From Candidatus Flemingiibacterium merdigallinarum (lineage in GTDB: Bacteria > Bacillota > Clostridia > Oscillospirales > CAG-272), in NCBI GenBank assembly GCA_904386005.1, contig CAJFKR010000001.1:37130-101129 (forward strand): 64,000 nucleotides of DNA, in the 5' to 3' direction. The notes under the pieces are model-generated. The model searched no databases. It was not told the DNA's origin and worked only from the letters and a program-made list of their open reading frames with translations. Both the position numbers and the translations under genes were made by a program. This document shows, piece after piece, positions 1 to 39,186 of the stretch; position 1 is the first letter of the stretch, and every line of letters starts with the position of its first letter.

Positions 1-141
1 CTCGCAGATCTCGCGCAGCTCCTGCTCGCGTCCGACAAGTATCAGCTCGATATCAGAATATTCGGCGAGCGCCTCCGCCGCGCCCTTTAGTATTTCCAGC
101 GGTGCGTTGTCTCCGCCCATCGCGTCAAGTATCAGCTTCAT
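1..141 (-). CDS. plsX: Phosphate acyltransferase PlsX, N-terminal fragment (continues off left edge)
   Basis: Reverse-strand translation from the ATG at 141-139 gives MKLILDAMGGDNAPLEILKGAAEALAEYSDIELILVGREQELREICE. This matches the conserved PlsX N-terminus (DAMGGDxAP). It is truncated by the window edge, so it is absent from the ORF track. Confidence 0.7.
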   Translation of the reverse strand, partial: MKLILDAMGGDNAPLEILKGAAEALAEYSDIELILVGREQELREICE

Positions 142-164
142 TTGCGTATACTCCTATATATTGT

Positions 165-400
165 TATTTCGTAATTGATTGTTTCCTCTGGGGGAGGAGC
201 CTTTTGAAAAAGGCTCCTCCCCGACCCTCCGCGAAAACTTTCGCAGAGTGGGATATATTGGGGATGTTTATTTGTGCACAGTCAGTTTATATGTGCTCGC
301 TGCCAGGACTACAGCCATGCGCCGCCTAATGGGACCCTGCTTCCCAACCGGCGGCTTGGTTTGGTGGGAACTTGTTTGAATTGGTTTGCGGTATTATTGT
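165..400 (+). repeat. Large structured repeat (family L), copy 1, core only
   Basis: It shares blocks with the other four copies: CTGGGGGAGGAGCCTTTTGAAAAAGGCTCCTCCCC hairpin, GACCCTCCGCGAAAACTTT, CATGCGCCGCC and CTGCTTCCCAACCGGCGGCTTGGTTT. It lacks the terminal inverted repeats and the inner variable hairpin. Confidence 0.7.
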
Positions 401-489
401 ATATTTGGATTTGGTGGTTTTGCTGATGTAACTATGCAATCAGCATTATTGTTATCTCCGGCGCGACCGAACAGCCGGTACATTTGCTA

Positions 490-1953
490 TTACTGTTCAT
501 CAGATGTGTCGGCTGCGGCGAGACCGAGCTCGGCGGCTTTAGCCTTGATATTTTCAATCGCGCGGATTCCCATAGCCTCGCCGCGGGCGCGCTTGCCGCC
601 CTTGACGCGGGTCGCGAGAGGCGCGGCTATGCCGAAGTTGACGTTCATCGGCTGAAAGTTCGCGACGTTCGGGTCGGAGACGTAGCGGGCGAGCGCGCCG
701 GTCATGCTCTCGCGGTCGAAATGCGCCGCGTCGAGTCCGAGCGCGTACCGCGCCGCGTTCAGTCCGGCGACGAGTCCGCTCGACGCGCTCTCGACATACC
801 CCTCGACGCCGGTCATCTGTCCGGCGAAGTAGAGCCCGGGGCGGGATTTATACATATAGCAGTCGTCGAGCAGCTTCGGCGAATTCATGAACGTATTGCG
901 GTGCATGACGCCGTAGCGCAGGAACTCGGCGTTCTCGAGTCCGGGAATAAGGCCGAAGACACGCCGCTGCTCGGGGAATTTCAGGTGGGTCTGGAAGCCG
1001 ACGATATTGTACATCGTGCCGTCGAGATTTTCGCGGCGGAGCTGCACTATCGCGTACGCCTCGCGTCCGGTCGACGGTACGGTGATGCCGACCGGCTTCA
1101 TCGGACCGAACAGCAGTGTTTCGCGTCCGCGGCGCGCCATCTCCTCGACCGGCATACAGCCCTCGAACACGGTGGGGCGTTTGGATTTATTGGTGGTATG
1201 ATTATCGTCAATGCGGTCACTGCCGGAATCGTGGTCACTGCCGGAATCGCGGTCAATGTTATTATCTCCGGTCGCTCCGGTACTGCCATCGCCTTTGTCG
1301 AAATCGTGCAGCTCGGCTTCCTCGGCTGTAATCAGCGCGTCATAGAAGCGGTCGTACTCCTCGCGGGTCATCGGGCAGTTGATGTACGACGCCTCGCCCT
1401 TGTCGTAGCGCGACGCGAAGAAGGCTTTTGTCATGTCTATAGACTCGAAGCTGACTATCGGCGCGGCGGCGTCGTGGAAGTAGAGGTAATCGGTGCCGAT
1501 GAGGCGGGCGATATCGCGTGACAGCGAATCGCTTGTGAGCGGTCCGGTCGCGATAACGACGATTCCGTCGGGTATTTCTGTGACCTCGTGCTCCTCGATT
1601 TCAATGAGCGGATGTGAGCGGAGCTTATGCGTGATGTAGTCGGAGAAGCGGTAACGGTCGACCGCGAGCGCGCTGCCCGCCGGAACCTCGCAGGCGTAGG
1701 CGGCTTCGATGACGAGCGAGCCGAGCAGGCGCATCTCCTCTTTCAGCACGCCGACCGCGTTAGTCATCATATTCGACCGAAGCGAATTCGAGCAGACGAG
1801 CTCGGCGAATCCGGAATAGCTGTGCGCTGGGGTGTACTTCTTTGGCTTCATCTCGACGAGCCGAACCCTGACGCCGAGCCGTGCGGCCATATAAGCCGCT
1901 TCGCATCCAGCCAGCCCCGCGCCGACAACGGTAATTTGTGGGGTGTTGTTCAT
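490..1953 (-). CDS. trmFO: Methylenetetrahydrofolate--tRNA-(uracil-5-)-methyltransferase TrmFO
   Basis: 487-aa ORF. The N-terminal FAD fold [12 protein letters not shown] and the motifs [10 protein letters not shown] and FEGCMP are typical of TrmFO/Gid. It follows topA as in the Bacillus dprA-topA-trmFO order. It carries a ~40-aa acidic low-complexity insertion. Confidence 0.9.
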
Positions 1954-1984
1954 AGTTATTTCTTTATGTTTAAGTTAGGGGGGA

Positions 1985-2380
1985 TTAAGAGAGTGGTCTC
2001 TGATTCGGCTCTGCCGAATCAGAGAGAGTGGAGAGCGGAGAGTGGTCTCGGATTCGCGGAGCGAATCCGAGAGCTGCGGTAGAAATTCGCCGTTGGCGAA
2101 TTTCAAATTATTATATACGCTTATGCGTATCTCGTTATTATATACGCTTATGCGTATCTCGCTTTTATGAGCGGGAGGGAGGGAATAGAATTATATTACA
2201 ACTTATCACTCAACCGCCGCAGGCGGTTTTAATCACAAAAATTCCCGCAGGGAATTTTTGTGTACCTCATCTCTCCGCGCAGCGGAGACCACTCTCTCCG
2301 ACTTCGCCGCAGGCGAAGCCGGAGACAACTCTCCACTCTCTCACAGCTTCGCCACAGGCGAAGCTGTGAGACCACTCTCT
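1985..2380. repeat. Modular hairpin-array repeat (family H), two convergent arms around a 137-bp centre
   Basis: The left arm has GAGAGTGGTCTC + hairpin units, then GAGCTGCGGTAG + GAAATTCGCC-GTTG-GGCGAATTTC. The right arm has the same modules in reverse complement and ends on the topA stop codon. The centre contains a 27-bp direct repeat TTATTATATACGCTTATGCGTATCTCG x2. Confidence 0.85.
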
Positions 2381-4643
2381 ATTCGGCGGCTTCTTCCGGC
2401 TCGACCTCTCGCTTGTAGCCGCAGCCGTCGGTCTTGCAGACCAGCAGGTTTTTGCCTTTCTTCTTATACAGCATACCGCCGCAGGTCGGGCATTTTTCAT
2501 TAGTCGGCATATCCCACGACGAGAACTCGCACTCGGGATAGCGTGAACAGCTGTAGAATACCGAGCGGCTGCGACCTTTCTTGACTACGACCTCAGCGCC
2601 GCAGAGCGGGCAGGCGACGCCGATGCCTTTCGTTATCTGCTTCGTGTTCTTGCACTCGGGGTAGCGCGAGCAGGCGTAGAAGTTGCCGTAGCGACCGGTG
2701 CGCAGCACCATCGGGCTGCCGCACTTCTCGCACACCATGTCGGTCTCGGCAACCACCTCGTCGAGCGCCTCGCCGTCCTTTGTGAGCGGCTTCGTGTTCT
2801 TGCAGGCGGGATAGTTCGGACAGGCCGCGAACTTGCCGTAGCGTCCGTTCTTGACGACCATTTTCGCGCCGCACTTCTCGCATACCATGTCGATTTCCTC
2901 AACCGGCAGCGCGTATTCGTCCTTAGTAGTCGAGTTTTCGGCTTTCTCGAGCGTTTTCGCGAAATCGTCATAGAACGCGTGCAAGACTCCGCTGACCGTG
3001 TTCACTCCGTTCGCGATTTCGTCAAGCTCGGTCTCCATCTCGGCGGTGAACTCATAGTCGACAATTTTCGGGAAGTAGTCGACCATGAGACGCGTCGTGA
3101 CCTCGCCAAGCTCGGTCGGCTTCAAGGATTTGTTTTCGCGCACGACGTATCCGCGCGTGATTATTGTTGTTATAATTGTAGCGAACGTGCTCGGACGACC
3201 GATACCCCGCTCCTCGAGGAATTTGACGAGCGACGCTTCGTTATAGCGCGGCGGCGGCTCGGTGAAGTGCTGCTGCGGCTTTGTCTCGTTGTGGCGCAGC
3301 TGCTCTCCCTCGTTGAGATGCGGCAGCTTCGCGCTCTTTTCGGGCGCGTCGCTGTCCTTTTCGCTCGCTTCCTCCGACTCCTCGTACACGGTCATGTATC
3401 CGGGGAATCTTACCGAGTAGCCGCTCGTGCGGAAGATGTAGCCGCCCGACTCGATGTCGGCGCTGATCGTATCGAGCTCCGCCGACGCCATCTGGCTCGC
3501 CATGAAGCGGTCCCAGATCAGCTTATAGAGCCGGTACTGGTCGCCGGTGAGCAGCTTCTTTATCTTCTCGGGTTCGAACTGGGTCGACGACGGGCGTATC
3601 GCCTCGTGCGCGTCCTGCGCGCCGGCTTTGGTCTTATAGATACGGCGCTCCTTCGGGTAGAACTGCTCGCCGTACTTCTCGGTGATATACTCCTTCGCCG
3701 CGTCGGCAGCCTCGTCGGCGATTCGGAGCGAGTCGGTACGCATATAGGTGATAAGACCCTGCACTCCGCCCATCGAGCTGCCGAGGTTTATGCCCTCGTA
3801 AAGCTCCTGCGCGACGCGCATTATCTTCTGTGACTGGAAGCCGAGCCGTCTCGACGCCTCCTGCTGCAGGGTCGACGTCGTGAAAGGCGGAGCGGGATTC
3901 TTCATGCGGACGGCGTTCTTGACCGAGCGGACGACAAACTCGCGTCCCTCGACGGCGGCGACTATCTTCATAGCCTCCTCCTCCGAGTGGAGCTCGAGCT
4001 TTCCGTTCGCGTCGCCGTAGAACTTCGCCTTAATCCTGCCGCCTTTTTTATTCTCGAGCGAGACGTCGATAGTCCAGTATTCCTCGGGATTGAACGCGCG
4101 TATCTCGTTCTCGCGCTCGACTATGATACGGGTCGCGACCGACTGCACGCGTCCGGCCGACAGCCCGCTCTTTACGGTTTTCCAAAGGAACGGACTCAAT
4201 TTATAGCCGACTATTCGGTCGAGCAGGCGGCGAGCCTGCTGTGAGTTGACCAGCCCCATATCGATGTCGCGCGGATTCTTGATACCGGCTTTGACCGCCT
4301 TTTTTGTGACCTCGTTAAAAGTCACGCGGCGGATTTTTTCCTCGGGTATCTCGAGCGCGATTGACAGATGCCACGCGATAGCCTCGCCCTCGCGGTCGGG
4401 GTCGGTCGCGAGGTAGACCTTGTCTGCCGCCTTGGCTTCCTTTTTGAGCTCCTTTATCAGCGGACCCTTGCCGCGGATATTTATATATCTGGCCTTGAAA
4501 TCGTTCTCGATATCGATACCGAGCGAGCTTTTCGGCAGGTCGCGGATATGTCCGGTCGACGCCACGACCTTGTAGCCCGAGCCAAGATAGCCTTTGACCG
4601 TGACCGCCTTTGGCGGCGATTCCATGATTACGAGATTAGCCAT
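2379..4643 (-). CDS. topA: DNA topoisomerase I with four C-terminal zinc ribbons
   Basis: 754-aa ORF with a Toprim N-terminus (LVIMESPPKA, DPDREGEAI). The active-site region is ITYMRTDS. There are four CxxC...CxxC zinc-ribbon repeats at the C-terminus. Confidence 0.95.
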   Translation of the reverse strand: MANLVIMESPPKAVTVKGYLGSGYKVVASTGHIRDLPKSSLGIDIENDFKARYINIRGKGPLIKELKKEAKAADKVYLATDPDREGEAIAWHLSIALEIPEEKIRRVTFNEVTKKAVKAGIKNPRDIDMGLVNSQQARRLLDRIVGYKLSPFLWKTVKSGLSAGRVQSVATRIIVERENEIRAFNPEEYWTIDVSLENKKGGRIKAKFYGDANGKLELHSEEEAMKIVAAVEGREFVVRSVKNAVRMKNPAPPFTTSTLQQEASRRLGFQSQKIMRVAQELYEGINLGSSMGGVQGLITYMRTDSLRIADEAADAAKEYITEKYGEQFYPKERRIYKTKAGAQDAHEAIRPSSTQFEPEKIKKLLTGDQYRLYKLIWDRFMASQMASAELDTISADIESGGYIFRTSGYSVRFPGYMTVYEESEEASEKDSDAPEKSAKLPHLNEGEQLRHNETKPQQHFTEPPPRYNEASLVKFLEERGIGRPSTFATIITTIITRGYVVRENKSLKPTELGEVTTRLMVDYFPKIVDYEFTAEMETELDEIANGVNTVSGVLHAFYDDFAKTLEKAENSTTKDEYALPVEEIDMVCEKCGAKMVVKNGRYGKFAACPNYPACKNTKPLTKDGEALDEVVAETDMVCEKCGSPMVLRTGRYGNFYACSRYPECKNTKQITKGIGVACPLCGAEVVVKKGRSRSVFYSCSRYPECEFSSWDMPTNEKCPTCGGMLYKKKGKNLLVCKTDGCGYKREVEPEEAAE

Positions 4644-4748
4644 TTAGTGTGATTTCTCCTTAAAAATTGATTCGTCAAAAATTGGTTCGTCGATTGGATT
4701 GACAATTGGATATATCTATTTGTATAATGGTGGTTTATATAATTGCGG

Positions 4749-6536
4749 TCAGATGTTACGTCTGAACAGCCCGCCGGGGAGTGATTCGACCGCCGAATAG
4801 AGCTCGAGAATCGTCAATGTCGCGAGCACGTCGCTTGTCGGCAGGTCGTCGCGCGTGAGCTTGTCCGGTGAGACCGCGCTGCCATCTTCAGGCAGCAAGT
4901 TGTAAATTCGCAGCTGCAGCGGGTTTAGCCGGCTTTTATCAAAGCTCGGCTTTTCCGTGGGCGCGGCGTTATGGGACCGGCTCTGTATAGACCGGAAGCC
5001 GCTATTGTTAGGCAAAGAATTGGCGGGCTTAGCAGCTGAATCGCGCGGTCTGTCCTGTGCGGACTGTGTGCAGCCGTCACGGTCGTGCGAGGAAACGGCA
5101 GGCTTAGCAGCTGAATCGCGCGGTCTGTCCTGTGCGGACTGTGTGCAGCCGTCATGGTTGGGCGAGGAGACGGCAGGCTTAGCAGCTGAATCGCGCAGTC
5201 TGTCCTGTGCGGACTGTGTGCAGCCGTCATGGTCGTGCGAGGAAACGGCGGGCTTAGCAGCTGAATCGCGCGGTCTGTCCTGTATAGGCTGGGCAGCCTC
5301 GGTGTGGACGGCTTCATTTGACTTCATGTCAGCCGTGCCAGTGTCTTTGAGCAGCGCGGACGCCGGTTTGAGATTGTCACGCGGCACAGCATTGCCACGC
5401 GGCTCGTCAGCATTGGAACGCACGGTCTCCGGCGGTTTGACGCCGGTCGGTCTGCCGTCAGCATGGCGAGCCGCCACATTCGCTTTTGCCGCGCGCGGCT
5501 GCCCCTCCGGTTGGTCGGACTTTGCACTGCTTCTGTCACGTCCCGACGGGTCAGACAAATCGCGCTCGGGCAACGGCTTCGTCGCGCGCAGCTCATAATG
5601 AAGGTATTTCTCACTGCGGGTCAGCATTTCGTTCGGCGACAGGTTCATCTTGTCGGCGAAATCCCGAAGAATGTCCTCGGCGGAGGCGCACAGGTACGCG
5701 CCGTCGCGTATCAGCAGATTCGTCCCGCGGCTCTCGGGCGAGTTGACGTTGCCGGGTACGGCGTAGACCGGACGCCCTTGGTCAGCCGCGTGACGCGCGG
5801 TTATCAGCGCGCCCGAACGCTCGCCCGCCTCGACTACAAGCAGCGCGTCGGAAAGTCCGCTGATTATACGGTTGCGTATCGGGAACGAATACCTTGACGG
5901 AGGGGTGTTTGGCGCGAACTCGCTTATCAGCATACCGCGCTCGGCAATCTGATCGAGCATGATCTTGTTTTCAGCCGGATACGCGACATTGACGCCGCAC
6001 CCGAGCACCGCTATCGTCGGCGACTCGAAGTAGAGCGCGGTCTGGTTTGCGACCGAGTCAATTCCGTTCGCCGCGCCGCTGATTATGACCGCGTTGTGCG
6101 CGCAGAGCTTGCGCGTGATATCGAACGCGATGTGCTTTCCGTAGTTGGTCATCGCGCGCGTGCCGACGACGCCCACGCTGAATTTGTCGTCGAGCGCTTC
6201 AATGTTTCCTCTGCAATATAGGACAATCGGTCGGTTATACAGACCTTTGAGCCGCTCTGGATAATGTTCGGACGCGCAGCTGACTATTCTGATGCCGCCC
6301 ATGAAGCAGAATTCGATTATATCCTCCGCGCGACTGAGGTCATGGTCGGCAAAGCGCGAGATGAAGCTCGGGTCGAATTTACCTATACCGAGCAGCTCGT
6401 CGCGTCCGGCCTCGTAAATCCGTTTGGGCGGACATTCCTCGCCCGAGCGGGCGTAATACTCGATAAGCCGCACTCCGTCCGAGCTGCCCGCGCCGCAGCG
6501 CAACGCATACCATATCCAGTAGATGATATCCTTCAT
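4749..6536 (-). CDS. dprA: DNA-processing protein DprA/Smf with repeat-expanded linker
   Basis: It has the Rossmann-like DprA core (VGTRAMTNYG, IISGAANGIDSVANQTAL, FPIRNRIISGLS, VVEAGERSGALITA) and a C-terminal winged-helix-like tail. The start is moved from the ORF-track 6887 to the ATG at 6536 (MKDIIYW), which is preceded by AAGGAGGA. The upstream in-frame stretch runs through a repeat element. Confidence 0.85.
   Translation of the reverse strand: MKDIIYWIWYALRCGAGSSDGVRLIEYYARSGEECPPKRIYEAGRDELLGIGKFDPSFISRFADHDLSRAEDIIEFCFMGGIRIVSCASEHYPERLKGLYNRPIVLYCRGNIEALDDKFSVGVVGTRAMTNYGKHIAFDITRKLCAHNAVIISGAANGIDSVANQTALYFESPTIAVLGCGVNVAYPAENKIMLDQIAERGMLISEFAPNTPPSRYSFPIRNRIISGLSDALLVVEAGERSGALITARHAADQGRPVYAVPGNVNSPESRGTNLLIRDGAYLCASAEDILRDFADKMNLSPNEMLTRSEKYLHYELRATKPLPERDLSDPSGRDRSSAKSDQPEGQPRAAKANVAARHADGRPTGVKPPETVRSNADEPRGNAVPRDNLKPASALLKDTGTADMKSNEAVHTEAAQPIQDRPRDSAAKPAVSSHDHDGCTQSAQDRLRDSAAKPAVSSPNHDGCTQSAQDRPRDSAAKPAVSSHDRDGCTQSAQDRPRDSAAKPANSLPNNSGFRSIQSRSHNAAPTEKPSFDKSRLNPLQLRIYNLLPEDGSAVSPDKLTRDDLPTSDVLATLTILELYSAVESLPGGLFRRNI
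5023..5290. repeat. 75-bp in-frame tandem repeat (~3.6 copies) inside dprA
   Basis: The unit GGCTTAGCAGCTGAATCGCGCGGTCTGTCCTGTGCGGACTGTGTGCAGCCGTCA... repeats directly. It encodes DRPRDSAAKPAVSSHDHDGCTQSAQ units between the DprA core and the C-terminal domain. Confidence 0.9.
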
Positions 6537-6589
6537 TAATGGGACGTCCTCCTTTGTTGTTCGGTATTTAGGTGATTGCATAAGTGCGA

Positions 6590-6865
6590 AAGTGTTCGTT
6601 TTTATGTGGGAAGCACCTGCGAGCTGCTGACGCGCGAGCTTTTGAGGCAGCTCGGAAAAAGGCGTCTTGCCATCATTTCGACAAGCGCAGCTTGTCGAAA
6701 TGTAAGCGCAGCTTGTCGAAATGTAAGCGCAGCTTGTCGAAATGTGACCCCCCGCCGCTCCCATACGGCGGCTCGATTTGTGCGTGGTCGTTTGGAGCTT
6801 ATGGTGTATGTTCGTTGACTGCTTAATTGCATAACTATAATTTCCGTCGAACTCATGGCGCGTTG
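6590..6865 (+). repeat. Large structured repeat (family L), copy 2, internally deleted, with 3 x 21-bp hairpin units
   Basis: The 5' nested hairpin GGGAAGCACCT..GAGCTGC..GCAGCTC..AAAAAGGCG resembles copy 5. The 3' block is CCGCCGCTCCCATACGGCGGCTCGATTTGTGCGTGGTCGTTTGGAGCTTATGG...CGTCGAACTCAT. The unit AGCGCAGCTTGTCGAAATGTA occurs 3 times at 6684-6746. Confidence 0.7.
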
Positions 6866-7233
6866 GGTCTATCTTGGCTTTTCGCACATCTAATGATACG
6901 TTTATGAGGTCTTACAAAATAGTATACCGCCATTCGGCGGAAATTTCAAGTCTTTTAACCCCGAATTTGTAAAATTTTATATTAAATAATTGAAGAATTC
7001 TATTTTTGGGGCGGTCGAGCGGGAGCTTTTGTTTATATATACATAAATATGACCGGCCATATTGCGGTCGGTCACATGATTTTATTGTTGTAAATCAACA
7101 CCGCGCGGCTTTTTTGACAAAACAGATAGCCGCGGATTTGTGAATCGACATTCGGGCATGGAGCTATTGACGACAGAACAGAAGGATTCGACCGGCCGCA
7201 TTTTCCGCGGCGAAACACAAGCCGCTCGCCGTG

Positions 7234-8979
7234 TCATTTCCGCAGCGACATCACGAGCCGCTCGTCGGGCGTGACATACGCGGTGTAGTTGGTCGTGTAA
7301 ATGACGAACCCGGGCTTCGAGCCGTTCGGCTTGCGGACATTTTTTATAAGGGTGTAGTCGACCGCGACGTTCTGACCGTCAGACGCCTTCGAGTAGTAGG
7401 CGGCTATCGTCGCGGCTTCGGTGAAGTCGCGCTCGGTCGGCTCGCCGTCCTCACAGAACAGCACGCAGTGCGAGCCGGGCTGATTCTTGACGTGGAACCA
7501 GTAGTCGGACTTTGACGCGACGCGGGTCGTGAGCCAGTCGTTCTGATGATTGTTCTTGCCGCAGAGGACGCGCAGTCCGTCGGTCGTGCGAAATTCCATC
7601 AGCTTCGGCTGTGACAGCTTCTTCGCGGCGTAGCTCTTCATTCGCGACGCGTAGCCCGAGCGGTAGAGCTCGTCGCGTATTTCGAGAATGTCGCTCTCGC
7701 TCTCGGCTCGGGTCAGCGAGTCGAACACCGTGTAGATATAGTCGAGCTCGGCTTCGGCGAGCTTTATCTGCCGCGCCAGCTCGACCTCGGCGGTCTTGCA
7801 CTTCGCGTACTTCTTATAGAATCGCTGCGCGTTCTGCTGAGGCGACAGCCGCTTGTCGAGCCTTATTTTTATCTTGCCGCCGTCCTCGCTGTAGTAGTTG
7901 TCGAGCTCTACCTCCTCGTCGCCGCGCTTCAGCTGCCAGATGTTGGCGGTCACAAGGTCGCCCCAGAGCTTGTAATTCTCCTTTTCGGCGCAGTCGGCGA
8001 GGTCGCTTTTTTGCAGCGCGATCTTCTTTTGAAGTCGGGTCTCGGCGTTGGTTAATAGCCGGAAGATATCGGAGGTGCGCTGCTTTATGCGCTCGGCGCG
8101 GTCGCGGGTGATGAAGAACTCGTCAAGCAGGCTGCCGAAGTCGGGGAACTTAATAACGTCAAAGTCGCCGCCGTATTCGGTCGGTCGGAAAAACGAATAC
8201 TCGACCGGACGACCGTTCGGCTCACGCACGAGCCAAGGCTCGAAGCAGTGTTCGCTGACCATAGCCGCGAACTCGCACAGCGCGTCATACAGCCGCTCGC
8301 CGCATTCGTCCACCGTCGCGCCAAGTCTACCCGCGGCGCGGCAGGCGATCTCGCGCGCGGTCAGGGCTGACAGTCCGTAATAATTCGCGGTGAGAAATTT
8401 ATCGGCGGTCATATCGCCCGAATCTGCCGCGGCGGCGTCAAACGCGGCGCGGTCGGGCTCGAGCGGCAGCATTTTATTCTGCTTCGGCGGCAGCTCGTAG
8501 ACAAAGCCGGGCAGTATCTGCCGCTTGGAGCTTGCCGAAAGGTCGATGATGCGCAGCGCGCTTATGACCTTTTTGTCCGAATCGAGCAGGATTATATTGC
8601 TGTACTTGCCCATAGTCTCGGCGACGAGGTATTTCGGCTTGCGGTAGCCGAGCTCGTCCATGCAGTCGAACGCGAACTCGACCGCGCGCTCGAAGCCGAG
8701 CTGCGTTATTCCGGTGACGCGCGAGCCGGTGAGGTGCTTTCGCAGCAGCATACAGAACATCGGCGCGGTAGTGGGATTCTCTTTCTGCTGCGACGTTATA
8801 TGAAAGCGCGGATTGTTTGTGCCTGCCGACAGCACGAGCCGCAGATTCTCGCGACCGGCGTGCAGCAGCAGGACTATCTCGTCGCGTTCAGGCTGCAGCA
8901 CCTTTTCGACCCGCGCGTCGGTGATACGCGAATTCAACTCATATGTGATTGCCGATACCATTCCGGCGTCAAATGCCAT
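7234..8979 (-). CDS. rqcH: Ribosome quality-control protein RqcH (NFACT / fibronectin-binding protein A family)
   Basis: 581-aa ORF. The N-terminus MAFDAGMVSAITYELNSRI...VEKVLQPERDEIVL and the C-terminal WFHVKNQPGSH motif are typical of FbpA/NFACT proteins. Confidence 0.85.
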   Translation of the reverse strand: MAFDAGMVSAITYELNSRITDARVEKVLQPERDEIVLLLHAGRENLRLVLSAGTNNPRFHITSQQKENPTTAPMFCMLLRKHLTGSRVTGITQLGFERAVEFAFDCMDELGYRKPKYLVAETMGKYSNIILLDSDKKVISALRIIDLSASSKRQILPGFVYELPPKQNKMLPLEPDRAAFDAAAADSGDMTADKFLTANYYGLSALTAREIACRAAGRLGATVDECGERLYDALCEFAAMVSEHCFEPWLVREPNGRPVEYSFFRPTEYGGDFDVIKFPDFGSLLDEFFITRDRAERIKQRTSDIFRLLTNAETRLQKKIALQKSDLADCAEKENYKLWGDLVTANIWQLKRGDEEVELDNYYSEDGGKIKIRLDKRLSPQQNAQRFYKKYAKCKTAEVELARQIKLAEAELDYIYTVFDSLTRAESESDILEIRDELYRSGYASRMKSYAAKKLSQPKLMEFRTTDGLRVLCGKNNHQNDWLTTRVASKSDYWFHVKNQPGSHCVLFCEDGEPTERDFTEAATIAAYYSKASDGQNVAVDYTLIKNVRKPNGSKPGFVIYTTNYTAYVTPDERLVMSLRK

Positions 8980-9007
8980 TTTTATACCTCTGAGAAAAAA
9001 TATTAAA

Positions 9008-9200
9008 GAAAGTGGTTCTGGTTTAAGTGAGAGCTTATATAAGAGTGGTCTGCCGCGCAGCGGCAGAGAGTGAACATGACTTTGTCTTTGACAAAGTCAT
9101 GTGTGGTCATCCACTTCGCGGAGAGCTTTGGTCGGAATTCGCCGCAGGCGAATTCCGGTGCGGGCTGTTTGCGATGGCGTGGCGGGGGAGTGAGCGGAGA
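9008..9200 (+). repeat. Hairpin-array repeat (family H), single arm, variant with 13-bp-stem hairpin
   Basis: Contains AAGAGTGGTC-TGCCGC-GCA-GCGGCA-GAGAGTG, then ACATGACTTTGTC-TTT-GACAAAGTCATGT, then GGAATTCGCC-GCA-GGCGAATTCC. It is near-identical to 11085-11220. Confidence 0.8.
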
Positions 9201-9377
9201 ACGGTTTACGCGGGATAATTATTGCATATCGGTTCACGGGAGCAATTTGCTTGATATGATTCTCACATATCGATTCGCGAACGACGATTCGGCGGCGGAA
9301 TGTGTATGATCGAGGACGACGCATTGACCGCGCGGATACAATATATCGCTTGTTTTGCCAGTTATGTCGGGCTTTGT

Positions 9378-10085
9378 TCAGTCGCTTATTCTGTGTCCGA
9401 CGACGCAAAAGTTCTTCCCTGATTGAATGCCGCCGAGCTTTTTCGCGAGCGCAATCGACGCCTCGTTGTCCGAGCCGCATTCGTACAGCACCGTGTAGCC
9501 CTTGTCGATCAAAAAGCAGGCGAGCGCGGCGGTGCAGGACAGCCCATAGCCCTGATTGCGGTATTCCTCCGCGGTCTCGACTCCGATCTCGATTGTGCGG
9601 GTGTCCGGCTCCTCCTCGGCGAGCATGAACGAATAGTTCGTGGTCGCCGCCGAGACTATCTTGTCGTCGACTACGCAACCGAAGCAGATATGCCCGAAGT
9701 GGTTGAGCGCGGCGAAGTCGTAGCCGGTGAGGTTTTCGTAATCCTCACTTCCATCAAGCTCGCGCGTCGCGGGGAGTATCAGCTCGGAGTGCGGGTCGGT
9801 TATGTGGAAATTCAGAAAATGCGCGTCGCTGTCGTCTGCCGGAGCGAAGCCGATTTTGACAAAATACGGCTCGAATTGCTTCTTTGCCCACGCGACCGCT
9901 TCGGGTGAGAATAATTCGCCGCTCGCGCCGTAGCGGCGCAAAAACTCGTCGGCGATCGCTTTCTGCGAGGGAAAGACGGTGATTTTCGGCTCTCCGTCAG
10001 CCTCGCGCGACACCGAAAAGGGTATGGCTATATCAAATTCGCCGTCCAGCACGAGCTTTTCGGCGCCATCGTCAACAAAAATCAT
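9378..10085 (-). CDS. GNAT-family N-acetyltransferase (C-terminal GNAT domain)
   Basis: The acetyl-CoA binding motif is RNQGYGLSCTAALACFLIDKG, followed by SIALAKKLGG. The start is moved to the ATG at 10085 (MIFVDDG), preceded by AAAGGAG. The ORF-track start at 10172 would overlap the upstream gene. Confidence 0.7.
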   Translation of the reverse strand: MIFVDDGAEKLVLDGEFDIAIPFSVSREADGEPKITVFPSQKAIADEFLRRYGASGELFSPEAVAWAKKQFEPYFVKIGFAPADDSDAHFLNFHITDPHSELILPATRELDGSEDYENLTGYDFAALNHFGHICFGCVVDDKIVSAATTNYSFMLAEEEPDTRTIEIGVETAEEYRNQGYGLSCTAALACFLIDKGYTVLYECGSDNEASIALAKKLGGIQSGKNFCVVGHRISD

Positions 10086-10168
10086 TGTATACGCTCCTTT
10101 CGAGCTGTCCGGATAGGAAAACGGTATATGCGTTTTAGACCGCACGCACAAGCAGACACGCGGTGATA

Positions 10169-10993
10169 TCACACCGCGCCGTCGCCTGACGTCAGGTCGT
10201 CCGCGGCGTCGGATTCGGTCTCGCTGCCCATGGGCTCACTGCCCATGATAAAATAAAATTCAGGCTGATTGATTCCGTCAAAGGCTGGCATTCCCAGATT
10301 GCCCGAAACCTGAGACAAATATTCGGTGCAGAAGCTGAGTCCTGAGAGGGAGCCGAAGCGGAGTCGGTCGGCGGAGATGTCAAACAGCGGATCGCAGTTC
10401 TCACTGCCGGGGTAGATACAGCTGACGTCGAGTATACCCGTGCGCTTAAGCGAGCGGTCATAGCTGCCCTCAATCAGCGCGAACTCGCCGCCCCCGCCGC
10501 TTCCGGTCGCGAACGACAGCTTGCGCACCGGCGGAAGCAGTTTATTGTATTCGTATATCTCGCACACGAAGTCGAGGCGGTTTTCGTCGAGTCCCGCGCC
10601 GTCGAGCAGCGACTCGTCGCCCGACGCGAGGTAGGAGTTGAGCAGCTCGGCGTCGCCGGTCTCGAAGCGGATTATATTGATTTCGTCGTTCTGCTTGATA
10701 AATTTAAGGAAATCGAGCGCGGCTTCGTAGCTTGCCGCGTCGCCGCCGATGAACATACGATAGCCCTTTGTAGTATCGATATAATCGCGCACGTCGTAAT
10801 ACTCAAGGTAGCCGGCGTCGTCGGTATCGACCGGCTCGGTCGACAGTCTGACTCCGAGCTTAAAAAATGAAACGGCTCCGATGTCCGAAAATACAATCGA
10901 TAACACAGCAACGCAGAACGCCGATATGACGAGCAGTATCAGCGTTCTGCGAAGTATCGATGCTATTGTGTGAATCTGTCCCATCAAAATCAC
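10169..10993 (-). CDS. Hypothetical membrane-anchored protein
   Basis: 274-aa ORF with one N-terminal hydrophobic helix (LILLVISAFCVAVLSIVF) and an acidic C-terminal tail. No recognised motifs. Codon composition is like the neighbouring genes. Confidence 0.45.
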   Translation of the reverse strand: MILMGQIHTIASILRRTLILLVISAFCVAVLSIVFSDIGAVSFFKLGVRLSTEPVDTDDAGYLEYYDVRDYIDTTKGYRMFIGGDAASYEAALDFLKFIKQNDEINIIRFETGDAELLNSYLASGDESLLDGAGLDENRLDFVCEIYEYNKLLPPVRKLSFATGSGGGGEFALIEGSYDRSLKRTGILDVSCIYPGSENCDPLFDISADRLRFGSLSGLSFCTEYLSQVSGNLGMPAFDGINQPEFYFIMGSEPMGSETESDAADDLTSGDGAV

Positions 10994-11054
10994 TCCCCGC
11001 TGAAACTACAATTATATTTTATCGCATTTGAACCGATTTGTCAATAGTTTGTAA

Positions 11055-11410
11055 AAAGAGTGGTCGGTTTCGCGAAGCGGCAGAGAGTGGGGAGCGGACA
11101 TGACTTTGTCTTTGACAAAGTCATGTGTGGTCATCCGCTTCTCGGAGAACTGGCACAGGAATTCGCCGGAGGCGAATTCCTGTGTGGGCTGTTTGCGATA
11201 ACAGGGAGGGGGAGACGGCACGAACAGTTATTACATTGAAGAAACCGCCAATTTAATATCTGTGCGGTGACGTTGAGTTGATTTGAAATTCGCCGCAGGC
11301 GAATTTCTTCCTCATCTGTCCGCCGAAGGCGGACACCACTCTCCACTCTCTCGACTTCGCGCGGCGAAGTCGAGACCACTCTCTGCCGCGAAGCGGCAGA
11401 CCACCCTTTT
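11055..11410. repeat. Hairpin-array repeat (family H), two convergent arms
   Basis: The left arm is the same variant as 9008-9200. The right arm in reverse complement reads GGTGGTC-TGCCGC-TTC-GCGGCA-GAGAGTGGTCTCGACTTCGCC..., ending in GAAATTCGCC-TGC-GGCGAATTTC. Confidence 0.85.
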
Positions 11411-11444
11411 GTTAGAACCACTATTTTGTTTTACGCGGTTGATT

Positions 11445-12257
11445 TTAGATGAAGTCGTAAAAGTGTGTGATTTCGATGTCCTCGGGGATGTCCTGACCGT
11501 GCGAGCCGCGGCCGTTTTCCGCGGTGTGGACGCCGTGGTCGGTCGCGAAGCCGACAAGCGTAGCGCGCCCCGACGTAGCCGCCGCTGCCTTTGCCGCCGA
11601 ATGTATGCGCGCGAATGCCTTCGTGTGGTGGCGCAGCCATTCCATGGCCTCCTCGGACTCGGGATAGGTCGCGTGCATGACCGAGTCGTACATTCCGTTG
11701 TATATGACGAGGAAGTCGTATTTATCCTCGGCTATCAGCTCGAGTCCCTTTCTGACCGCCTGCTCGTCGGCGTCGGCAGAAGCTTCGAAGATGTAGTAGT
11801 CCATGTCGCGCTCGAGAAAGATTTTCGAAATCGAGCAGCCCTCGGTCGCGACTATGGCGACACGCTTGCCCTGACGTATCAGCGCGTCGAATATCGTGTC
11901 GATTTTAAGCACCGGCTTCTCGTATTTCTGTATGCCGTGACGCTCGGGCGCGGCTCCGGTATACATCGTCGCGAAGCAGACCGGCGTCACCGACGGCATA
12001 ACCGTCGCGAGCGGGTACTCGAGCGCGCAGCGCTCGGATACGTCCTCGAAATACTCGGGGTATTTTTTATACAGCCACTCGGCCATGGCGTCGGGATTGT
12101 ACATGATTACCCGCTCGGCGGTCTCTTCGCCGCAGAGCTTTTTTAAGTGCCCCGCGCTTTTCTCGGCGCTCTCGGGAGCCTTTATGCCCATGCAGTCGCA
12201 GATATCGGCGCAGAGCGCTGTAAGCGAGGTTCTGGCTTGTTCCATAATTATCACCAT
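11445..12257 (-). CDS. Alkaline-phosphatase-superfamily enzyme (nucleotide pyrophosphatase/phosphodiesterase-like)
   Basis: 270-aa ORF. MPSVTPVCFATMYTGAAPERHGI (nucleophile Thr region) and GFATDHGVH are typical of type I phosphodiesterase/AP-superfamily proteins. The exact start is uncertain (12257 or 12242). Confidence 0.65.
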   Translation of the reverse strand: MVIIMEQARTSLTALCADICDCMGIKAPESAEKSAGHLKKLCGEETAERVIMYNPDAMAEWLYKKYPEYFEDVSERCALEYPLATVMPSVTPVCFATMYTGAAPERHGIQKYEKPVLKIDTIFDALIRQGKRVAIVATEGCSISKIFLERDMDYYIFEASADADEQAVRKGLELIAEDKYDFLVIYNGMYDSVMHATYPESEEAMEWLRHHTKAFARIHSAAKAAAATSGRATLVGFATDHGVHTAENGRGSHGQDIPEDIEITHFYDFI

Positions 12258-12352
12258 GACTTCGCGTTAACGAAGTCTACTTTGCTAAAGCAAAGTATCC
12301 TTTCTTATGTCGATGTTTTGTGACGGCTTGATATTTTGCTTTTCGCGTCTAT

Positions 12353-13270
12353 TCAGATTTCCGCCGTCTCCGAGTACTCGATGTACGGGCGCTCGCCGTC
12401 GAACTTGATTTCGAGGACTACGTATGTGGACTCGTTGTAGCCGATGCTGCCGCCCCAGCGGTCGGCGAAGTATATAAACTTGCCGTCGCGCGGCAGGACA
12501 AACGCCGGCTGCGAGCCGAAGGTCGTCTCGTCTCCGAAATTTTCGAGCAGCGACCAGCTGCCGTCTATCGAGTCGGCGACCGACCACTTGCCTTGATTCG
12601 GCGCCCAGCCGGTGCAATACGAGGACAGCATATAGTATTTTCCGTCCTTTTTGAATATCGCCGGCGCTTCGCGGTACTCGCCCTGCCAGAGGATATTTAC
12701 GAGCCGCTCGGTGTTCATGAAGTCGCGCGTCAGCCGCCAGATGTGCAAATCGGCGTTGTCGCGCGACGCGGCGGCGAAATACGCGGTCCCGTCGTCGTCG
12801 CGGAACAATGTGCAGTCGCGCGCCATGTCGCCGAACGGATTGAAGCTGCCGTGATAGGTGAAGCCGTGGTCGGGGTAGTCGCTCGTCGCTACAGCGCAGC
12901 GCGCCGCGCTGTAATCGACTCCGTTCTCATAGTGCGCCCAGAGCACGTACTTTTTCGTGTGCTCGCAAAAGAGCACCTTCGGGCGCTCGAGGTTGACCTT
13001 GCGCGGCTTGCCGTCGGCGTCGGTGTGAGAAAGCGCAAGGTCGCTGCGTACCCGATAGCCCGCAGTCGGTGTGTCGGTTGTGATTATGTTGCCGCGGAAC
13101 TCGAAGCTTTTTAAGTCTTTTGAGCGGTAGCAGGAAATATAGTTGTTTTCGGTGCGGTTTTCGCCGTACCAGTAGTAATAGCCGTCGCAAAACAGCATAT
13201 GTCCGCCGTGCGCGTGTATTATATTGCCGTCGGCGTCGTACCATTTCTCGCCGTTTTTCAGTGTGTTCAT
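12353..13270 (-). CDS. Glycoside hydrolase family 43-like
   Basis: 305-aa ORF. The N-terminus WYDADGNIIHAHGGHMLFCDGYYYWYGE and repeated beta-propeller blade motifs are typical of GH43. No signal peptide. Confidence 0.8.
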   Translation of the reverse strand: MNTLKNGEKWYDADGNIIHAHGGHMLFCDGYYYWYGENRTENNYISCYRSKDLKSFEFRGNIITTDTPTAGYRVRSDLALSHTDADGKPRKVNLERPKVLFCEHTKKYVLWAHYENGVDYSAARCAVATSDYPDHGFTYHGSFNPFGDMARDCTLFRDDDGTAYFAAASRDNADLHIWRLTRDFMNTERLVNILWQGEYREAPAIFKKDGKYYMLSSYCTGWAPNQGKWSVADSIDGSWSLLENFGDETTFGSQPAFVLPRDGKFIYFADRWGGSIGYNESTYVVLEIKFDGERPYIEYSETAEI

Positions 13271-13538
13271 TGCCGGCCTCCGATCTTTTTTAGGAATGTC
13301 TATATATTATATCACAAGCTCTGCGATTTGGCAACAGAATTTGTGAAATTGATACATAAAATTTTTGACCGGTTATATGCCGCAGCGGTAACTTGCCGCA
13401 GCGTCAACCTGACGCAGACGCAAATCCCCCCGGACAATCAGTCCAGGGGGATTGAGCAGCATATTCGACCGGATCGCGCGAAACGTCTACATATACAGTA
13501 TGTATTGATATACGGACGCAGACAGTCGTATTGATTGA

Positions 13539-14381
13539 TTACGCGCGACGACGCAGGAATGCCGCGCCAGCGGCTGCTACGAGCGCAGCCATAGCTCCGA
13601 TTATCGACAGGTCGGAAGTCTGTGCCGACGATGCCGAAGCTTCAGCCTCTGCCTCAGCTGCCGCTGCGGCTTCAGCCTCCGCGATGAGGTCATCGACAGT
13701 CACGTCGCTGAGCAGGCACTGTCCGTATACCGAGGGGTCGCTCGAAGCCTTGTCCTGCGAGTCCGACCAGCCGAGGCAGACATTGCGCACGCCGCTGCCC
13801 TCGGCGTCGTCGTTGTACTGGAAGTCGATTCCGAAGTATTCGCCGGCTCCGCCTACCGCGCTGATGTCGCAGGAGATTTCATAAAGGAAGCCGCCGTCGG
13901 TCTCCTTGAACGCCGCTTGACTGTCGGCCGGAAGCTCGGAGCTGCCGTCCGCGAGGTAGCGAACCTGAGTCTTAGCCGCGGTCGAATCGGTCGAGTTTTC
14001 GGTCTGCAGGAAGTACTCTATCGAGTCCTGCTCCCACGGGTTTGCGCCGACAAGGCTGATTGTCTTGTCCTGCACCTCAAACAGCATAAAGAGCGTGGAG
14101 TCTCCGTCCCAGAGTACGCGGCAGTTGAGCGTAGCGTAGTCGACGCCCGCCTTTTTCGAGCTGTCGCCGAACCACGCGGACGCGTTCTCCTTGACTGTGT
14201 CGACCGAAATTATCGGGGCGTACTCCCACGCCTCGTCGATAGTTCCATCGACCTTGATGTCTGCGATGTAAGCCTCGCAGGTCTTTCTGCCGTCGACCGC
14301 GGGTGCCGCGGTGACTGCCGGTGCGGCGACCGTGAGTGTGAGTGCCGCTGCCGCGGCGATAGCGAAGATTTTGGATTTCAT
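13539..14381 (-). CDS. Secreted carbohydrate-binding (CBM9-like) protein with C-terminal hydrophobic anchor
   Basis: It has a signal peptide MKSKIFAIAAAAALTLTVAAPAVTA. The DGxIDEAW...W and FQYNDD motifs resemble CBM9/DOMON-type modules. It has an Ala/Glu linker, then SAQTSDLSIIGAMAALVAAAGAAFLRRRA. Confidence 0.55.
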   Translation of the reverse strand: MKSKIFAIAAAAALTLTVAAPAVTAAPAVDGRKTCEAYIADIKVDGTIDEAWEYAPIISVDTVKENASAWFGDSSKKAGVDYATLNCRVLWDGDSTLFMLFEVQDKTISLVGANPWEQDSIEYFLQTENSTDSTAAKTQVRYLADGSSELPADSQAAFKETDGGFLYEISCDISAVGGAGEYFGIDFQYNDDAEGSGVRNVCLGWSDSQDKASSDPSVYGQCLLSDVTVDDLIAEAEAAAAAEAEAEASASSAQTSDLSIIGAMAALVAAAGAAFLRRRA

Positions 14382-14588
14382 GATAATTGTCCTTTCACTT
14401 TAAGATTTGATCGCGCATCCGTCCGCGAAAGCCGCGGCGCGGATACACATATTGATCACACGTAATTATACCATGCCGTGGAGTAATTGTCAATCAAAAA
14501 TGAAAAATTTGTTTTCGGTTTGGCACTAAAACGATACAGCAGTGGCGTGAAATTGTGCAGTAGTCACAACTGTAATCGGCACCTGCAA

Positions 14589-15512: not shown

Positions 15513-15578
15513 AAAAGCCTCCTTGCGGTTTGCGTGATTCTTGATTTGCGGGTGTGGATGGAGCTTCAAAATAGTTGG

Positions 15579-15815
15579 GAATTAGGAGTTAGGAGTTAGG
15601 AGTTAGGAGTGGAGGAAGAAATTTGCCGGAGGCAAATTTCAATTAATTAAAATATATGGTTGAGCTGACTCTGTAATAATTTTAGTATAATAATATGCAA
15701 AAATCATGAAATTTTTGATAATAAGTTGTAAATAAGCGGCACGCCGCTCCACGTATTAAAATAGGAATTCGCCTTTGGCGAATTCCTACCGCAGCTCTCT
15801 GCGAAGCTGTGAGCG
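15579..15815. repeat. Hairpin-array repeat (family H), two arms
   Basis: The left arm has (TTAGGAGT)x4 then GAAATTTGCC-GGAG-GGCAAATTTC. The right arm in reverse complement reads CACAGCTTCGC-AGA-GAGCTGCGGTAG-GAATTCGCC-AAAG-GGCGAATTC. Confidence 0.8.
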
Positions 15816-15823
15816 CTCGTATA

Positions 15824-15854: not shown

Positions 15855-15865
15855 TTGGCATATTG

Positions 15866-17407: not shown

Positions 17408-17411
17408 TTAC

Positions 17412-32774: not shown

Positions 32775-33097
32775 AGAAGAGTGGTCTCGGAACTGCCGTA
32801 GGCAGTTCCGAGAGAGTGGAGAGTGGTCTGCCGCGGAGCGGCAGAGAGTGGTCTCCGCCTTCGGCGGAGAGCTGCGGTAGAAAAATTGCCTACGGCAATT
32901 TTTCAAAATTTATAAGAAAACGGCGACATTATAAAGAGACGACTATATTAAAAGAGACGACAACGATAAAAATAGTCGACCGTTTTTTCTGCCGCGGAGC
33001 GGCAGATTCAATCAAAAATTCCCGCAGGGAATTTTTGTACCGCAACTCCTCACTCCTCACTCCTAATTCCTCACTCGAAACACCTCACTCCTAACTC
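32775..33097. repeat. Hairpin-array repeat (family H), two convergent arms
   Basis: The left arm starts right after the stop codon with three GAGAGTGGTC(TC)+hairpin units, then GAGCTGCGGTAG-AAAAATTGCC-TAC-GGCAATTTTT. The right arm in reverse complement has (TTAGGAGTGAGG)n, then GCGGTAC-AAAAATTCCC-TGC-GGGAATTTTT. Confidence 0.85.
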
Positions 33098-39005: not shown

Positions 39006-39186
39006 CTTAAGAGTTAAGAGTGGTCTCCGCTGCGCGGAGAGAGTGGTCTCGCCTTCGGCGAGAGAGTGGTCTCCGCTTCGCGGAGAGCTGTGGTGGAAAA
39101 ATTCCCTGCGGGAATTTTTCAATTATCAAAACGCGTATGCGTGGATTGCGGCTTTGCTTTCTGCCAAAACTCCTCACTCCTAACTT
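39006..39186. repeat. Hairpin-array repeat (family H)
   Basis: It reads TTAAGAGTTAAGAGTGGTCTCCGC-TGC-GCGGAGA GAGTGGTCTCGCC-TTC-GGCGAGA GAGTGGTCTCCGC-TTC-GCGGAGA GCTGTGGTGG-AAAAATTCCC-TGC-GGGAATTTTT. A remnant opposite arm is AACTCCTCACTCCTAACT. Confidence 0.85.

Follow-up and report, generated by a model that had tools for sequence, protein, structure and literature searches.

INTRODUCTION

In Coxiella burnetii, the terminal inverted repeats of the intervening sequence (IVS) form a stem that is cut by RNase III, and tandem heptamers in variable number are found beside the start of the S23p gene (PMC4990558). In repetitive extragenic palindromic (REP) elements and REPINs, one end of the palindrome is marked by a conserved tag, GTAG or CGTC (PMC3733652). 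Here, we describe a hairpin-rich repeat in a 64,000-nt stretch of the genome of Candidatus Flemingiibacterium merdigallinarum (contig CAJFKR010000001.1, positions 37,130 to 101,129), the whole of which is referred to below as the window. All six loci noted in an initial annotation of the window (loci 1 to 6, at 1985-2380, 9008-9200, 11055-11410, 15579-15815, 32775-33097, and 39006-39186) are copies of one repeat family, which is an undescribed, lineage-specific, non-coding inserted repeat resembling REPs and bacterial interspersed mosaic elements (BIMEs). With a probability of roughly 0.5, the window elements would be gene-less miniatures of the S23p/IVS-type class of elements, including an IVS-like mode of action, and we infer that the miniatures were left by an old burst.

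The nearest known kind would be the IVS/S23p element. In both, inverted outer repeats pair around a center, here by predicted fold (PMC4990558), the arms contain tandem repeats (7 to 8 nt here) whose number varies between strains, and the spread is patchy and lineage specific, as is typical of selfish DNA. However, IVSs occur in one copy per rRNA operon, whereas the copies described here amount to about 110 terminal hairpins and lie outside rRNA, between protein-coding genes in about 109 intergenic regions, none of them being in helix 25 or 45 of 23S rRNA. In addition, this genome has no S23p gene, and the arms have been built up into series of perfect hairpins with 3-nt loops.

With REPs, BIMEs, and REPINs, the family shares short extragenic palindromes in high copy number, mosaic arrays whose linkers are constant, doublets in inverted orientation, a position after genes and within operons, and a species-specific sequence (PMC3733652, PMC2817692, PMC3116915). 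The initial annotation, which spoke of a modular REP/BIME/BOX-like look, inverted doublets, and a dispersed extragenic family, is fair as a description. The family differs from REPs in that no REP-associated tyrosine transposase (RAYT) was detected in this genome, GTAG is not conserved, the perfect stems vary by copy (90 of them) where REPs have a single imperfect consensus, the units are arranged head to tail and end in a distinct A/T-flanked hairpin, and the host belongs to the Clostridia rather than the Proteobacteria. Pneumococcal BOX elements are built of modules of 45 to 59 nt with a fixed sequence (boxA-boxB(n)-boxC), and we know of no dedicated transposase for them. From general knowledge, BOX elements share with this family the A-B(n)-C modules, the variable middle units, the strong predicted fold, and the intergenic location; however, the units here measure 23 to 40 nt, with only the linker and the stem base fixed, and a sequence relation is not expected. 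Bacterial MITEs (miniature transposable elements with inverted repeats; Correia/NEMIS, RUP, and IS630-derived), again as generally known, are similar in their inverted ends, short non-coding center, and insertion at gene boundaries, and full and empty versions with the same ends are present in a relative (genome G422). They differ from the family in that the latter has no transposase with matching ends, no clear target duplication, unconserved centers, and multi-hairpin arms.

RESULTS

Architecture of the repeat

The element consists of either a single arm or two arms facing each other, and each arm is built of four parts. The first, on the gene side, is the outer end (A/T)AAGAGTGG. The second is, in B-type arms, a series of one to five hairpins of the form TCTC-X/3-nt loop/X'-GAGA joined by GAGTGG linkers or, alternatively, in A-type arms, a run of the purine-rich 8-mers TTAGGAGT/GTGAGGAGT (module A of the initial annotation). 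The third part is a linker with the consensus GCTGTGGWA (AGAGCTGTGGWA), and the fourth is an A/T-flanked terminal (T) hairpin of the type GAAATTYGCC.nnn.GGCRAATTTC, which is followed by a short AT-rich tail. Past this tail, no sequence was shared among the copies when their centers were compared within the genome. The center between two arms is AT-rich and unconstrained, and the same position holds S23p in relatives. All six loci contain the modules from which they had initially been said to be built.

The B unit comprises a GAGTGG linker and the hairpin TCTC-X. loop. X'-GAGA. Its register was moved relative to the initial annotation because the TCTC of the earlier 12-mer is the stem base, which pairs with GAGA on the far side. 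Consecutive hairpins are spaced by 6 nt (46 cases, GAGTGG) or 13 nt (26 cases, GAGTGGAGAGTGG), giving a BIME-like mosaic with conserved linkers. The tetranucleotide at the start of the T stem is GTAG in 18 of 64 arms (28%), GAAG in 12, and something else in the rest. The initial claim of a conserved GTAG 5' of the palindrome did not survive this count, the consensus being the GCTGTGGWA given above.

Several variations on this plan were observed. In about 10 arms, the TCTC-type hairpin is replaced by a variant unit whose stem is fixed and particular to it (ACATGACTTTGYC.nnn.GRCAAAGTCATGT), at 9070-9098 and 11098-11126 in the window and also on contigs C10, C16, C22, and C74. In several arms, the outermost 15 to 19 nt (the linker and the start of the first stem) are tandemly duplicated, e.g., AAAGAGTGGTCTCCGGCG-TTGATG-AAAGAGTGGTCTCCGGC. 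Such outer duplications are found at C18:19895, C10:29339, C1:315960, and C16:24799 (strand coordinates) and may have been left by slippage or by the insertion step. The linker-stem junction of the B unit, GGTCTC/GAGACC (e.g., at 1995-2000), constitutes a recognition site of type IIS enzymes of the Eco31I/BsaI type.

Copy number and specificity

Allowing up to one mismatch, the 12-mer GAGAGTGGTCTC occurs 13 times in the window, compared with 0.21 expected. Counting copies across the available genome (3.49 Mb in 153 contigs, 94% complete), as the initial annotation had proposed, yielded 83 exact 12-mers, with none for the backwards control, and 119 matches to the T-hairpin pattern; parts of the element were present in the roughly 109 intergenic regions mentioned above. 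By comparison, the exact 12-mer was found zero to two times in each of 60 relatives, among them 31 species of the same genus, which is the level of the backwards control, and the T-hairpin pattern zero to three times in congeners.

Among 185,579 species representatives, the 19-mer double linker had a single further match, in the genome of an unrelated Thiodiazotropha; this hit was taken, uninspected, as a chance match. In metagenomes, the 19-mer was found in 38 contigs, almost all from assemblies ERZ1643251 and ERZ1643249. The flanks of the contigs from these two assemblies are about 88 to 98% identical to this genome; these contigs therefore represent related strains. Three Joint Genome Institute metagenome contigs with the 19-mer were inspected and rejected as chance matches with no arrays.

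Locus 6 is identical across three independent public assemblies and is, therefore, not an assembly artifact. When strain variants were sought by exact protein matching, all copies recovered were identical. Whole-arm identity between unlinked loci ranged from 75 to 93%; since even the best arm pair in the genome is only 93% identical, there is no sign of very recent spread. Among the papers searched, we found no description of such a repeat family, or of S23p-type elements outside rRNA genes or in Clostridia.

Structure of the hairpins

Units were delimited by their linkers alone, so that pairing was not required, and 167 of them could be folded. Perfect palindromes made up 158 of these 167 units, and a 3-nt loop was present in 155. 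Of their stem pairs, 1691/1703 (99.3%) are Watson-Crick, the others being 3 G·T, 5 A·C, and 4 further mismatches. Another 86 linker-bounded segments remained unfolded; those inspected were mostly parsing artifacts or non-element DNA, together with some truncated or decayed units, and the 0.7% mismatch figure is therefore valid for recognizable units only.

The 187 hairpins of the good arms contain 90 distinct stems of 7 to 15 bp. The stem base (TCTC in 135) and the stem top (CGC, GCC, or GGC) are semi-constant, and the middle 3 to 5 bp are variable. The first and last hairpins of an array tend to be long (12 to 13 bp) and the middle ones short (7 to 8 bp). The loops are closed by C-G, with GNA or its complement TNC predominating (63%). 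Two features of module B in the initial annotation, the repeated hairpin units and the paired differences between stems within a constant architecture, are thus confirmed. Its stem length of 6 to 10 bp was too short once TCTC/GAGA is included, and its loops of 3 to 4 nt are mostly 3 nt.

The predicted folds are unusually stable, with z-scores spanning -7 to -16. For the B-type arm of locus 5 (139 nt folded), the RNA fold reached -68.8 kcal/mol, with z = -7.2, and the DNA fold -45.8 kcal/mol, with z = -9.8. RNAfold of positions 1954-2382, the topA-trmFO spacer that holds locus 1, gave -218 kcal/mol (z = -15.9), with the left and right outer linkers pairing and closing the structure. The T hairpin, with A- and T-runs within and after its stem, is weakly terminator-like; one T hairpin passed a simple terminator scan of window positions 1-20000, which returned 35 terminator-like sites compared with 24.6 expected.

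Position, orientation, and insertion

None of the 76 well-formed arms was found inside a gene, even though coding sequence makes up 83% of the genome. The outer end always points toward the nearest gene and the T hairpin toward the middle of the spacer. The nearest gene end is a 3' end for 40 arms, 14 of which begin no more than 7 nt from the stop codon, in agreement with the initial observation that arms often start at stop codons. It is a 5' end for 35 arms, 11 of which lie about 20 nt from the start codon, directly upstream of the ribosome-binding site. Where a spacer holds two arms, they face each other in 15 cases and stand back to back in none (p = 6e-5); as had been claimed, a facing pair is present at four of the six loci in the window. 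Arms are present on both sides of 11 T hairpins, and partner arms match in type (hairpin or 8-mer) in 18 cases and are mixed in 6. Spacers between divergent genes are under-represented (8 versus 25.5 expected).

The junctions at two loci were compared with those of congeners. In four congeners, the topA stop codon overlaps the trmFO start codon (ATGA); here, the two are separated by 425 nt, consisting of two facing arms and their center, and this inserted block (1954-2378) is missing from the congeners. The xpaC-telA spacer measures 46 and 50 nt in the two congeners that have this gene pair and 292 nt here, corresponding to an inserted block of about 240 nt. Copies have thus entered formerly tight gene junctions after the species split from its congeners.

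Change between strains

Eight orthologous loci were compared with two related strains, and arrays were present at all eight. Substitutions were counted at six ERZ1643251 loci, a small set chosen for an exact 19-mer. The stems changed at 2/489 sites (0.4%), both substitutions forming one compensated pair, compared with 119/2003 (5.9%) for coding DNA, 14/276 (~5%) for linkers, 4/74 (~5%) for loops, and 166/1084 for other non-coding DNA (15%, part of which is alignment noise). The difference was significant for stems versus coding DNA (Fisher test, p = 1e-9) and for stems versus linkers (p = 3e-5). Ascertainment explains a factor of about 2 at most, because the stems were defined as perfect in this genome. 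No single wobble-forming change was seen in the 489 stem sites, whereas 10 to 24 would be expected were G·U-forming changes neutral.

Larger events included the duplication of a hairpin (24 nt) and of a whole arm (138 nt), the deletion of a linker together with half of a T hairpin (22 nt), and variation in the number of linker 7-mers. The copy number of TTAGGAGT or (AGAGTGG)n runs differed between strains at loci L008 and L031. Two hairpin tips had been swapped, together with their loops, for variants existing in other copies (GCC.gcg.GGC versus GGC.ttt.GCC, and TTCAC.aaa versus TTCGC.gaa), and in one chimeric hairpin, now imperfect, the 5' half matches another copy. The genes at C18:23595-24984 and C18:25596-27012 enclose a spacer in which the ERZ1643249 strain has a two-armed element, whereas this genome has different content; the T hairpins, center, and right arm of that element show 74% similarity to the element that this genome has at C15:12456. 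These unit-level and copy-swap events indicate that the family evolves by gain and loss of units and by exchange between copies. Since insertion, the arrays have changed mainly by these routes, and single-base changes in stems have been strongly purged.

The hairpin tips had been suspected from one locus to be hypervariable. This idea was abandoned, as the stems were the slowest-changing part at the six loci and the rare tip changes resemble exchange between copies.

Sister arrays and S23p genes

The T pattern was scanned for in 400 genomes of the order. Expansions were found in family f4/g9 (30 matches in G069, 19 in G095, and 9 in G039), family f19 (12 in G109), and family f17/g22 (12 in G284 and 11 in G422). 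Family f6/g11 gave 15 matches in G097, where the two loci inspected are plain or nested palindromes with no arrays. The array grammar, with other linkers, is distributed patchily over at least four other families of the order. The elements of f4/g9 consist, in order, of [linker-hairpin]n, xAAGGAG, CAAATTGCC.nnn.GGCAATTTG, AATTATT, a second T hairpin, and the mirror image. Each of these elements has a private linker on both arms (GGTAAAT, GCTAAAT, GTGAAAT, GTGATAT, or TGAAT); because this linker is common to the two arms, the two-armed unit is the element. The arms of f19 and f17 contain runs of purine-rich 6- to 8-mers instead of hairpins.

The S23p domain PF05635 was present in all six genomes in which sister arrays were seen. 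All 12 of the S23p loci examined, in 12 genomes of the order, are flanked or directly preceded by mirrored arms, and the proteins examined belong to TIGR02436 ("four helix bundle protein"). In G284, G422, and G033, the order is a repeat run, a T-like hairpin, S23p, a second hairpin, and the mirrored run. G422 also holds an empty version with the same arms, in which the two hairpins are 13 nt apart. The arm in G033, a member of the same family as the window genome, comprises AGAGTGC/GAATGCA heptamers, TTATGGAT (a TATGGAT linker), and a GAATTTG... hairpin, words that are close to AGAGTGG, TGTGGTA, and GAAATTCG... of the window. In the congeners G013 and G025, hairpin-type arms with the linkers ATATCAC or GTGAAAT precede S23p.

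At four loci (L094 in G085, L098 in G039, L099 in G025, and L100 in G049), S23p and its upstream two-armed arrays directly follow a tRNA gene, with a strong terminator hairpin between the tRNA and the arrays at three of the four (L094, L098, and L099). The recurrence of this position at four loci suggests that it is a preferred landing site of the gene-carrying form. At another locus (L088, G069:C4:1-5200), seven T hairpins in 3.3 kb flank three ORFs (open reading frames), one of which, of 121 aa, resembles by eye the Prp protease of the L21-Prp-L27 ribosomal operon. A quick inspection of the ORFs near T clusters in G069 and G095 for a linked enzyme gene revealed nothing transposase-like.

The six loci in the window

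Locus 1 has two arms. The trmFO-side arm (1985..2104, + strand) has TTAAGAGAGTGG as its outer end, two B hairpins (1997-2025 and 2046-2072), the linker GCTGCGGTA, and the T hairpin GAAATTCGCC.gtt.GGCGAATTTC at 2082-2104. The center (2105..2233) is AT-rich and found at this locus alone; it includes a tandem duplication of 27 nt together with an additional hairpin. The topA-side arm (2234..2380, - strand) has three B hairpins, one of them imperfect in the register used, and the T hairpin CACAAAAATTCCC.tgc.GGGAATTTTTGTG; its outer end overlaps the topA stop codon (TAG-AGAGTGG).

Locus 2 is a single arm (9008..9190, + strand). A degenerate outer linker is followed by one B hairpin, TCTGCCGC.gca, by the variant unit, here ACATGACTTTGTC.ttt.GACAAAGTCATGT, and by a T hairpin, CGGAATTCGCC.gca (9133-9157), with a tail behind it. 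The arm shares 85% identity with positions 11092-11214 of locus 3. The left arm of locus 3 (11055..11183, + strand) consists of a degenerate B unit, the ACATGACTTTGTC unit, and the T hairpin CACAGGAATTCGCC.gga at 11153-11183, and its outer end adjoins the promoter-like TTGACA-17-TAAAAT of the next gene. The right arm (11285..11412, - strand), with three B hairpins and the T hairpin GAAATTCGCC at 11285-11307, lies downstream of the gene at 11445-12257.

Locus 4 combines an A-type arm (15580..15640, + strand), formed by four copies of TTAGGAGT, GGAGGAA, and the T hairpin GAAATTTGCC.gga.GGCAAATTTC at 15618-15640, with a facing arm (15763..15815, - strand) that has the T hairpin AGGAATTCGCC.ttt at 15763-15787, the linker TACCGCAGCTC, and a decayed B unit. 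At locus 5, the B-type arm (32775..32904, + strand) begins 1 nt past the stop codon of the ORF at 31053-32774 and contains three B hairpins, the linker GCTGCGGTA, and a T hairpin at 32880-32904. This 573-aa ORF had been labeled "SBP", an identity that found no backing in a Pfam search (no match at E<=1e-5). The facing A-type arm (33013..33097, - strand) comprises the T hairpin CAAAAATTCCC.gca at 33013-33037 and ACTCCTCA/ACTCCTAA repeats, which reach the leader of the BNR-repeat gene at 33124. Locus 6, in the spacer between an xpaC-like gene and telA, has a B-type arm (39006..39120, + strand) with TTAAGAGTTAAGAGTGG, three 7-bp B hairpins, the linker GCTGTGGTG, and a T hairpin at 39096-39120, facing the remnant of an A-type arm (39167..39186, - strand), AAAACTCCTCACTCCTAAC.

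The genes next to the loci are functionally unrelated and include topA, trmFO, telA, and those for an NFACT protein, a GNAT acetyltransferase, a phosphodiesterase, and a BNR-repeat protein. None of the six loci matched Rfam at the gathering score. The only two Rfam matches in the window are a large-type bacterial signal recognition particle RNA (20088-20355, - strand) and a tRNA gene (56962-57032, + strand).

Other repeats are present in the window. Four copies of a separate repeat of about 300 nt, at 154-361, 17832-18111, 29366-29667, and 30889-31273, combine a hairpin, GGGGGAGG-N-CCTCCCCC, with blocks of conserved sequence (families D3, D5, D7, D13, and D16). A different hairpin repeat, AATCATTTGTGGTCGAAT-palindrome-ATTCGAGACTGCG (families D9 and D15), occurs at 25580-25890 in three tandem copies 122 to 139 nt apart, between the ORFs at 24809-25543 (+) and 26033-27538 (-). 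About 14 copies of a 19-nt tandem repeat (family D1) span 41037-41299 from the end of the ORF at 40492-41076, and an 80-nt direct repeat (61819-62023, family D18), whose copies are 90% identical and 125 nt apart, starts immediately downstream of the ORF at 57259-61818 (1519 aa), directly behind its stop codon.

DISCUSSION

The observation of a modular hairpin repeat at the six loci is real, with the corrections given above. The initial annotation missed the link to S23p/IVS-type cassettes, the strict orientation rule, and the very strong constraint on the stems.

If the window elements are miniatures with an IVS-like mode of action, as we consider about an even bet, they would act on read-through transcripts. 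The linkers or repeat runs of facing arms would pair, and the fold would close at the outer ends. The paired arms would form a branched double-stranded structure, a candidate substrate of RNase III by analogy with IVSs, and the local hairpins could cap the new 3' and 5' ends or serve as partial terminators. The insert would thereby be tolerated within operons and would insulate the neighboring genes; we propose that cutting by RNase III, followed by capping of the ends, would allow inserts in translationally coupled junctions to be tolerated.

Several observations weigh against this reading. A PF05635 hidden Markov model search of this genome returned no S23p gene, and the best tblastn hit with 10 S23p proteins had an E value of 0.075. 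With neither gene nor remnant here, the link rests on architecture and short motifs and not on alignable homology. S23p genes are also present in several genomes without a T expansion, so co-occurrence is not exclusive. Single arms are common and cannot form an inter-arm stem, and B-type arms pair through linkers of 6 to 13 nt broken by hairpins, unlike the classical 20-bp substrate of RNase III. The lack of G·T tolerance fits a constraint at the DNA level better than an ordinary RNA one. Two further caveats are that the gene calls came from our own crude codon-usage ORF scorer (83% of the genome coding) and that the strain comparison had so few loci.

The single arms, the interrupted helices, and the intolerance of G·U agree with a constraint acting on DNA hairpins or on both strands, and we therefore keep a DNA-level role as a serious rival, albeit one to which we give distinctly less weight. 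Here, the palindromes would act as DNA hairpins or cruciforms, in DNA made single-stranded by replication or copying or extruded by supercoiling that transcription drives, and would be bound or processed by a structure-specific protein, with any effects on RNA being by-products. Stems of Watson-Crick pairs with no excess of G·T, more conserved than coding DNA, would be expected of such an element, and its fold as DNA is strong (z = -9.8). The nearly universal 3-nt loops, closed by C-G and 63% GNA/TNC, point in the same direction, given the high stability in DNA of the mini-hairpin motif d(C-GNA-G). So do the orientation rule, which is set by geometry independently of the direction of transcription, and the outermost 15- to 19-nt duplications of several arms if these are interpreted as polymerase slippage at hairpins. 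However, stems of 7 to 15 bp with GC-rich centers are generally known to extrude poorly as cruciforms, no candidate binding protein or nuclease was identified, and weak selection for maximal RNA stability in a large population could likewise purge G·U. A DNA-level role is also compatible with an IVS-type origin.

More speculatively still, S23p proteins and mirrored heptamer/hairpin arrays might form a partnership resembling that of REPs and RAYTs. They would then represent an undescribed class of mobile elements that seeds both rRNA IVSs and, as in this genome, more than 100 gene-less miniatures at operon junctions. The perfect triloop palindromes, with Watson-Crick pairs only, and the linkers particular to each element would be the mark of a copying or binding step that depends on DNA hairpins and on neither a RAYT nor a DDE transposase, each linker 7-mer serving as a word recognized by the protein. 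We regard this partnership as a tentative idea that is more probably wrong than right.

It is improbable that the elements are MITEs of a DDE transposon (e.g., of the IS630/Tc1 type), with the facing arms as terminal inverted repeats and with partner ends that would match AGAGTGGTCTC. The 16 two-armed copies do have conserved termini (AGAGTGG...CCACTCT) and A/T-rich flanks (A-rich on one side, T-rich on the opposite one), with TA or TAA directly at the end in about 6 of the 16, and this genome has an IS630-type DDE_3 gene that five congeners lack. However, the ends of the IS630-type copy are unrelated (CCAATTAATACTTGAA...), and DDE_3 is absent from the other genomes with sister families. Neither a clear target-site duplication nor a consistent direct repeat was found in the 16 two-armed copies. 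No center matches another locus of this genome, the between-strain case with 74% similarity, center included, being the one match seen. The partner arms are not each other's closest relatives and so are not recent mirror copies.

Even less credence is due to a classical REP/REPIN family mobilized by a RAYT (a Y1 HUH transposase), the origin favored in the initial annotation. In its favor are the abundance of short palindromes outside genes, with 187 hairpins in good arms, the inverted doublets, and the GTAG of some copies. However, PF01797 had no match (E<=0.01) in this genome (G000; at 94% completeness, the absence is not absolute), in G039 (98% complete, with a sister family), or in G016, whereas the positive controls gave matches in 6 of 14 genomes. 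The ORFs flanked by arms have no likeness to transposases, GTAG stands at the T stem in a minority of arms, and the perfect and varied stems differ from the imperfect stems of REPs, which have a single sequence per family. A search for an autonomous copy, with facing arms 0.7 to 4 kb apart, found no transposase among the enclosed ORFs; those between facing arms are ferredoxin-reductase-like, binding lipoproteins, an oxidoreductase, a large glycosidase-like protein, and an AraC regulator. Copying to new sites is not by RAYT, and membership in the REP-RAYT system fails on two defining features. Finally, that these are independent ordinary terminators or chance hairpins with no family behind them is scarcely credible, since the one T hairpin picked up by the terminator scan is set against common linkers and a common grammar, 75 to 93% whole-arm identity between unlinked loci, 13 window matches where 0.21 are expected, and absence from congeners.

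In practical terms, the arrays break short-read assemblies, mediate exchange between loci, and would suit as strain markers. They also offer a clean natural example of selection that very strongly favors perfect pairing: stems change at less than a tenth of the rate of coding DNA, yet 90 different ones coexist. Within one order of gut Clostridia, the arms are found around S23p, as empty versions, and as a family in more than 100 regions of a genome without S23p. The finding bears on how rRNA IVSs arise and spread and on the role of the S23p ORF (PMC4990558).

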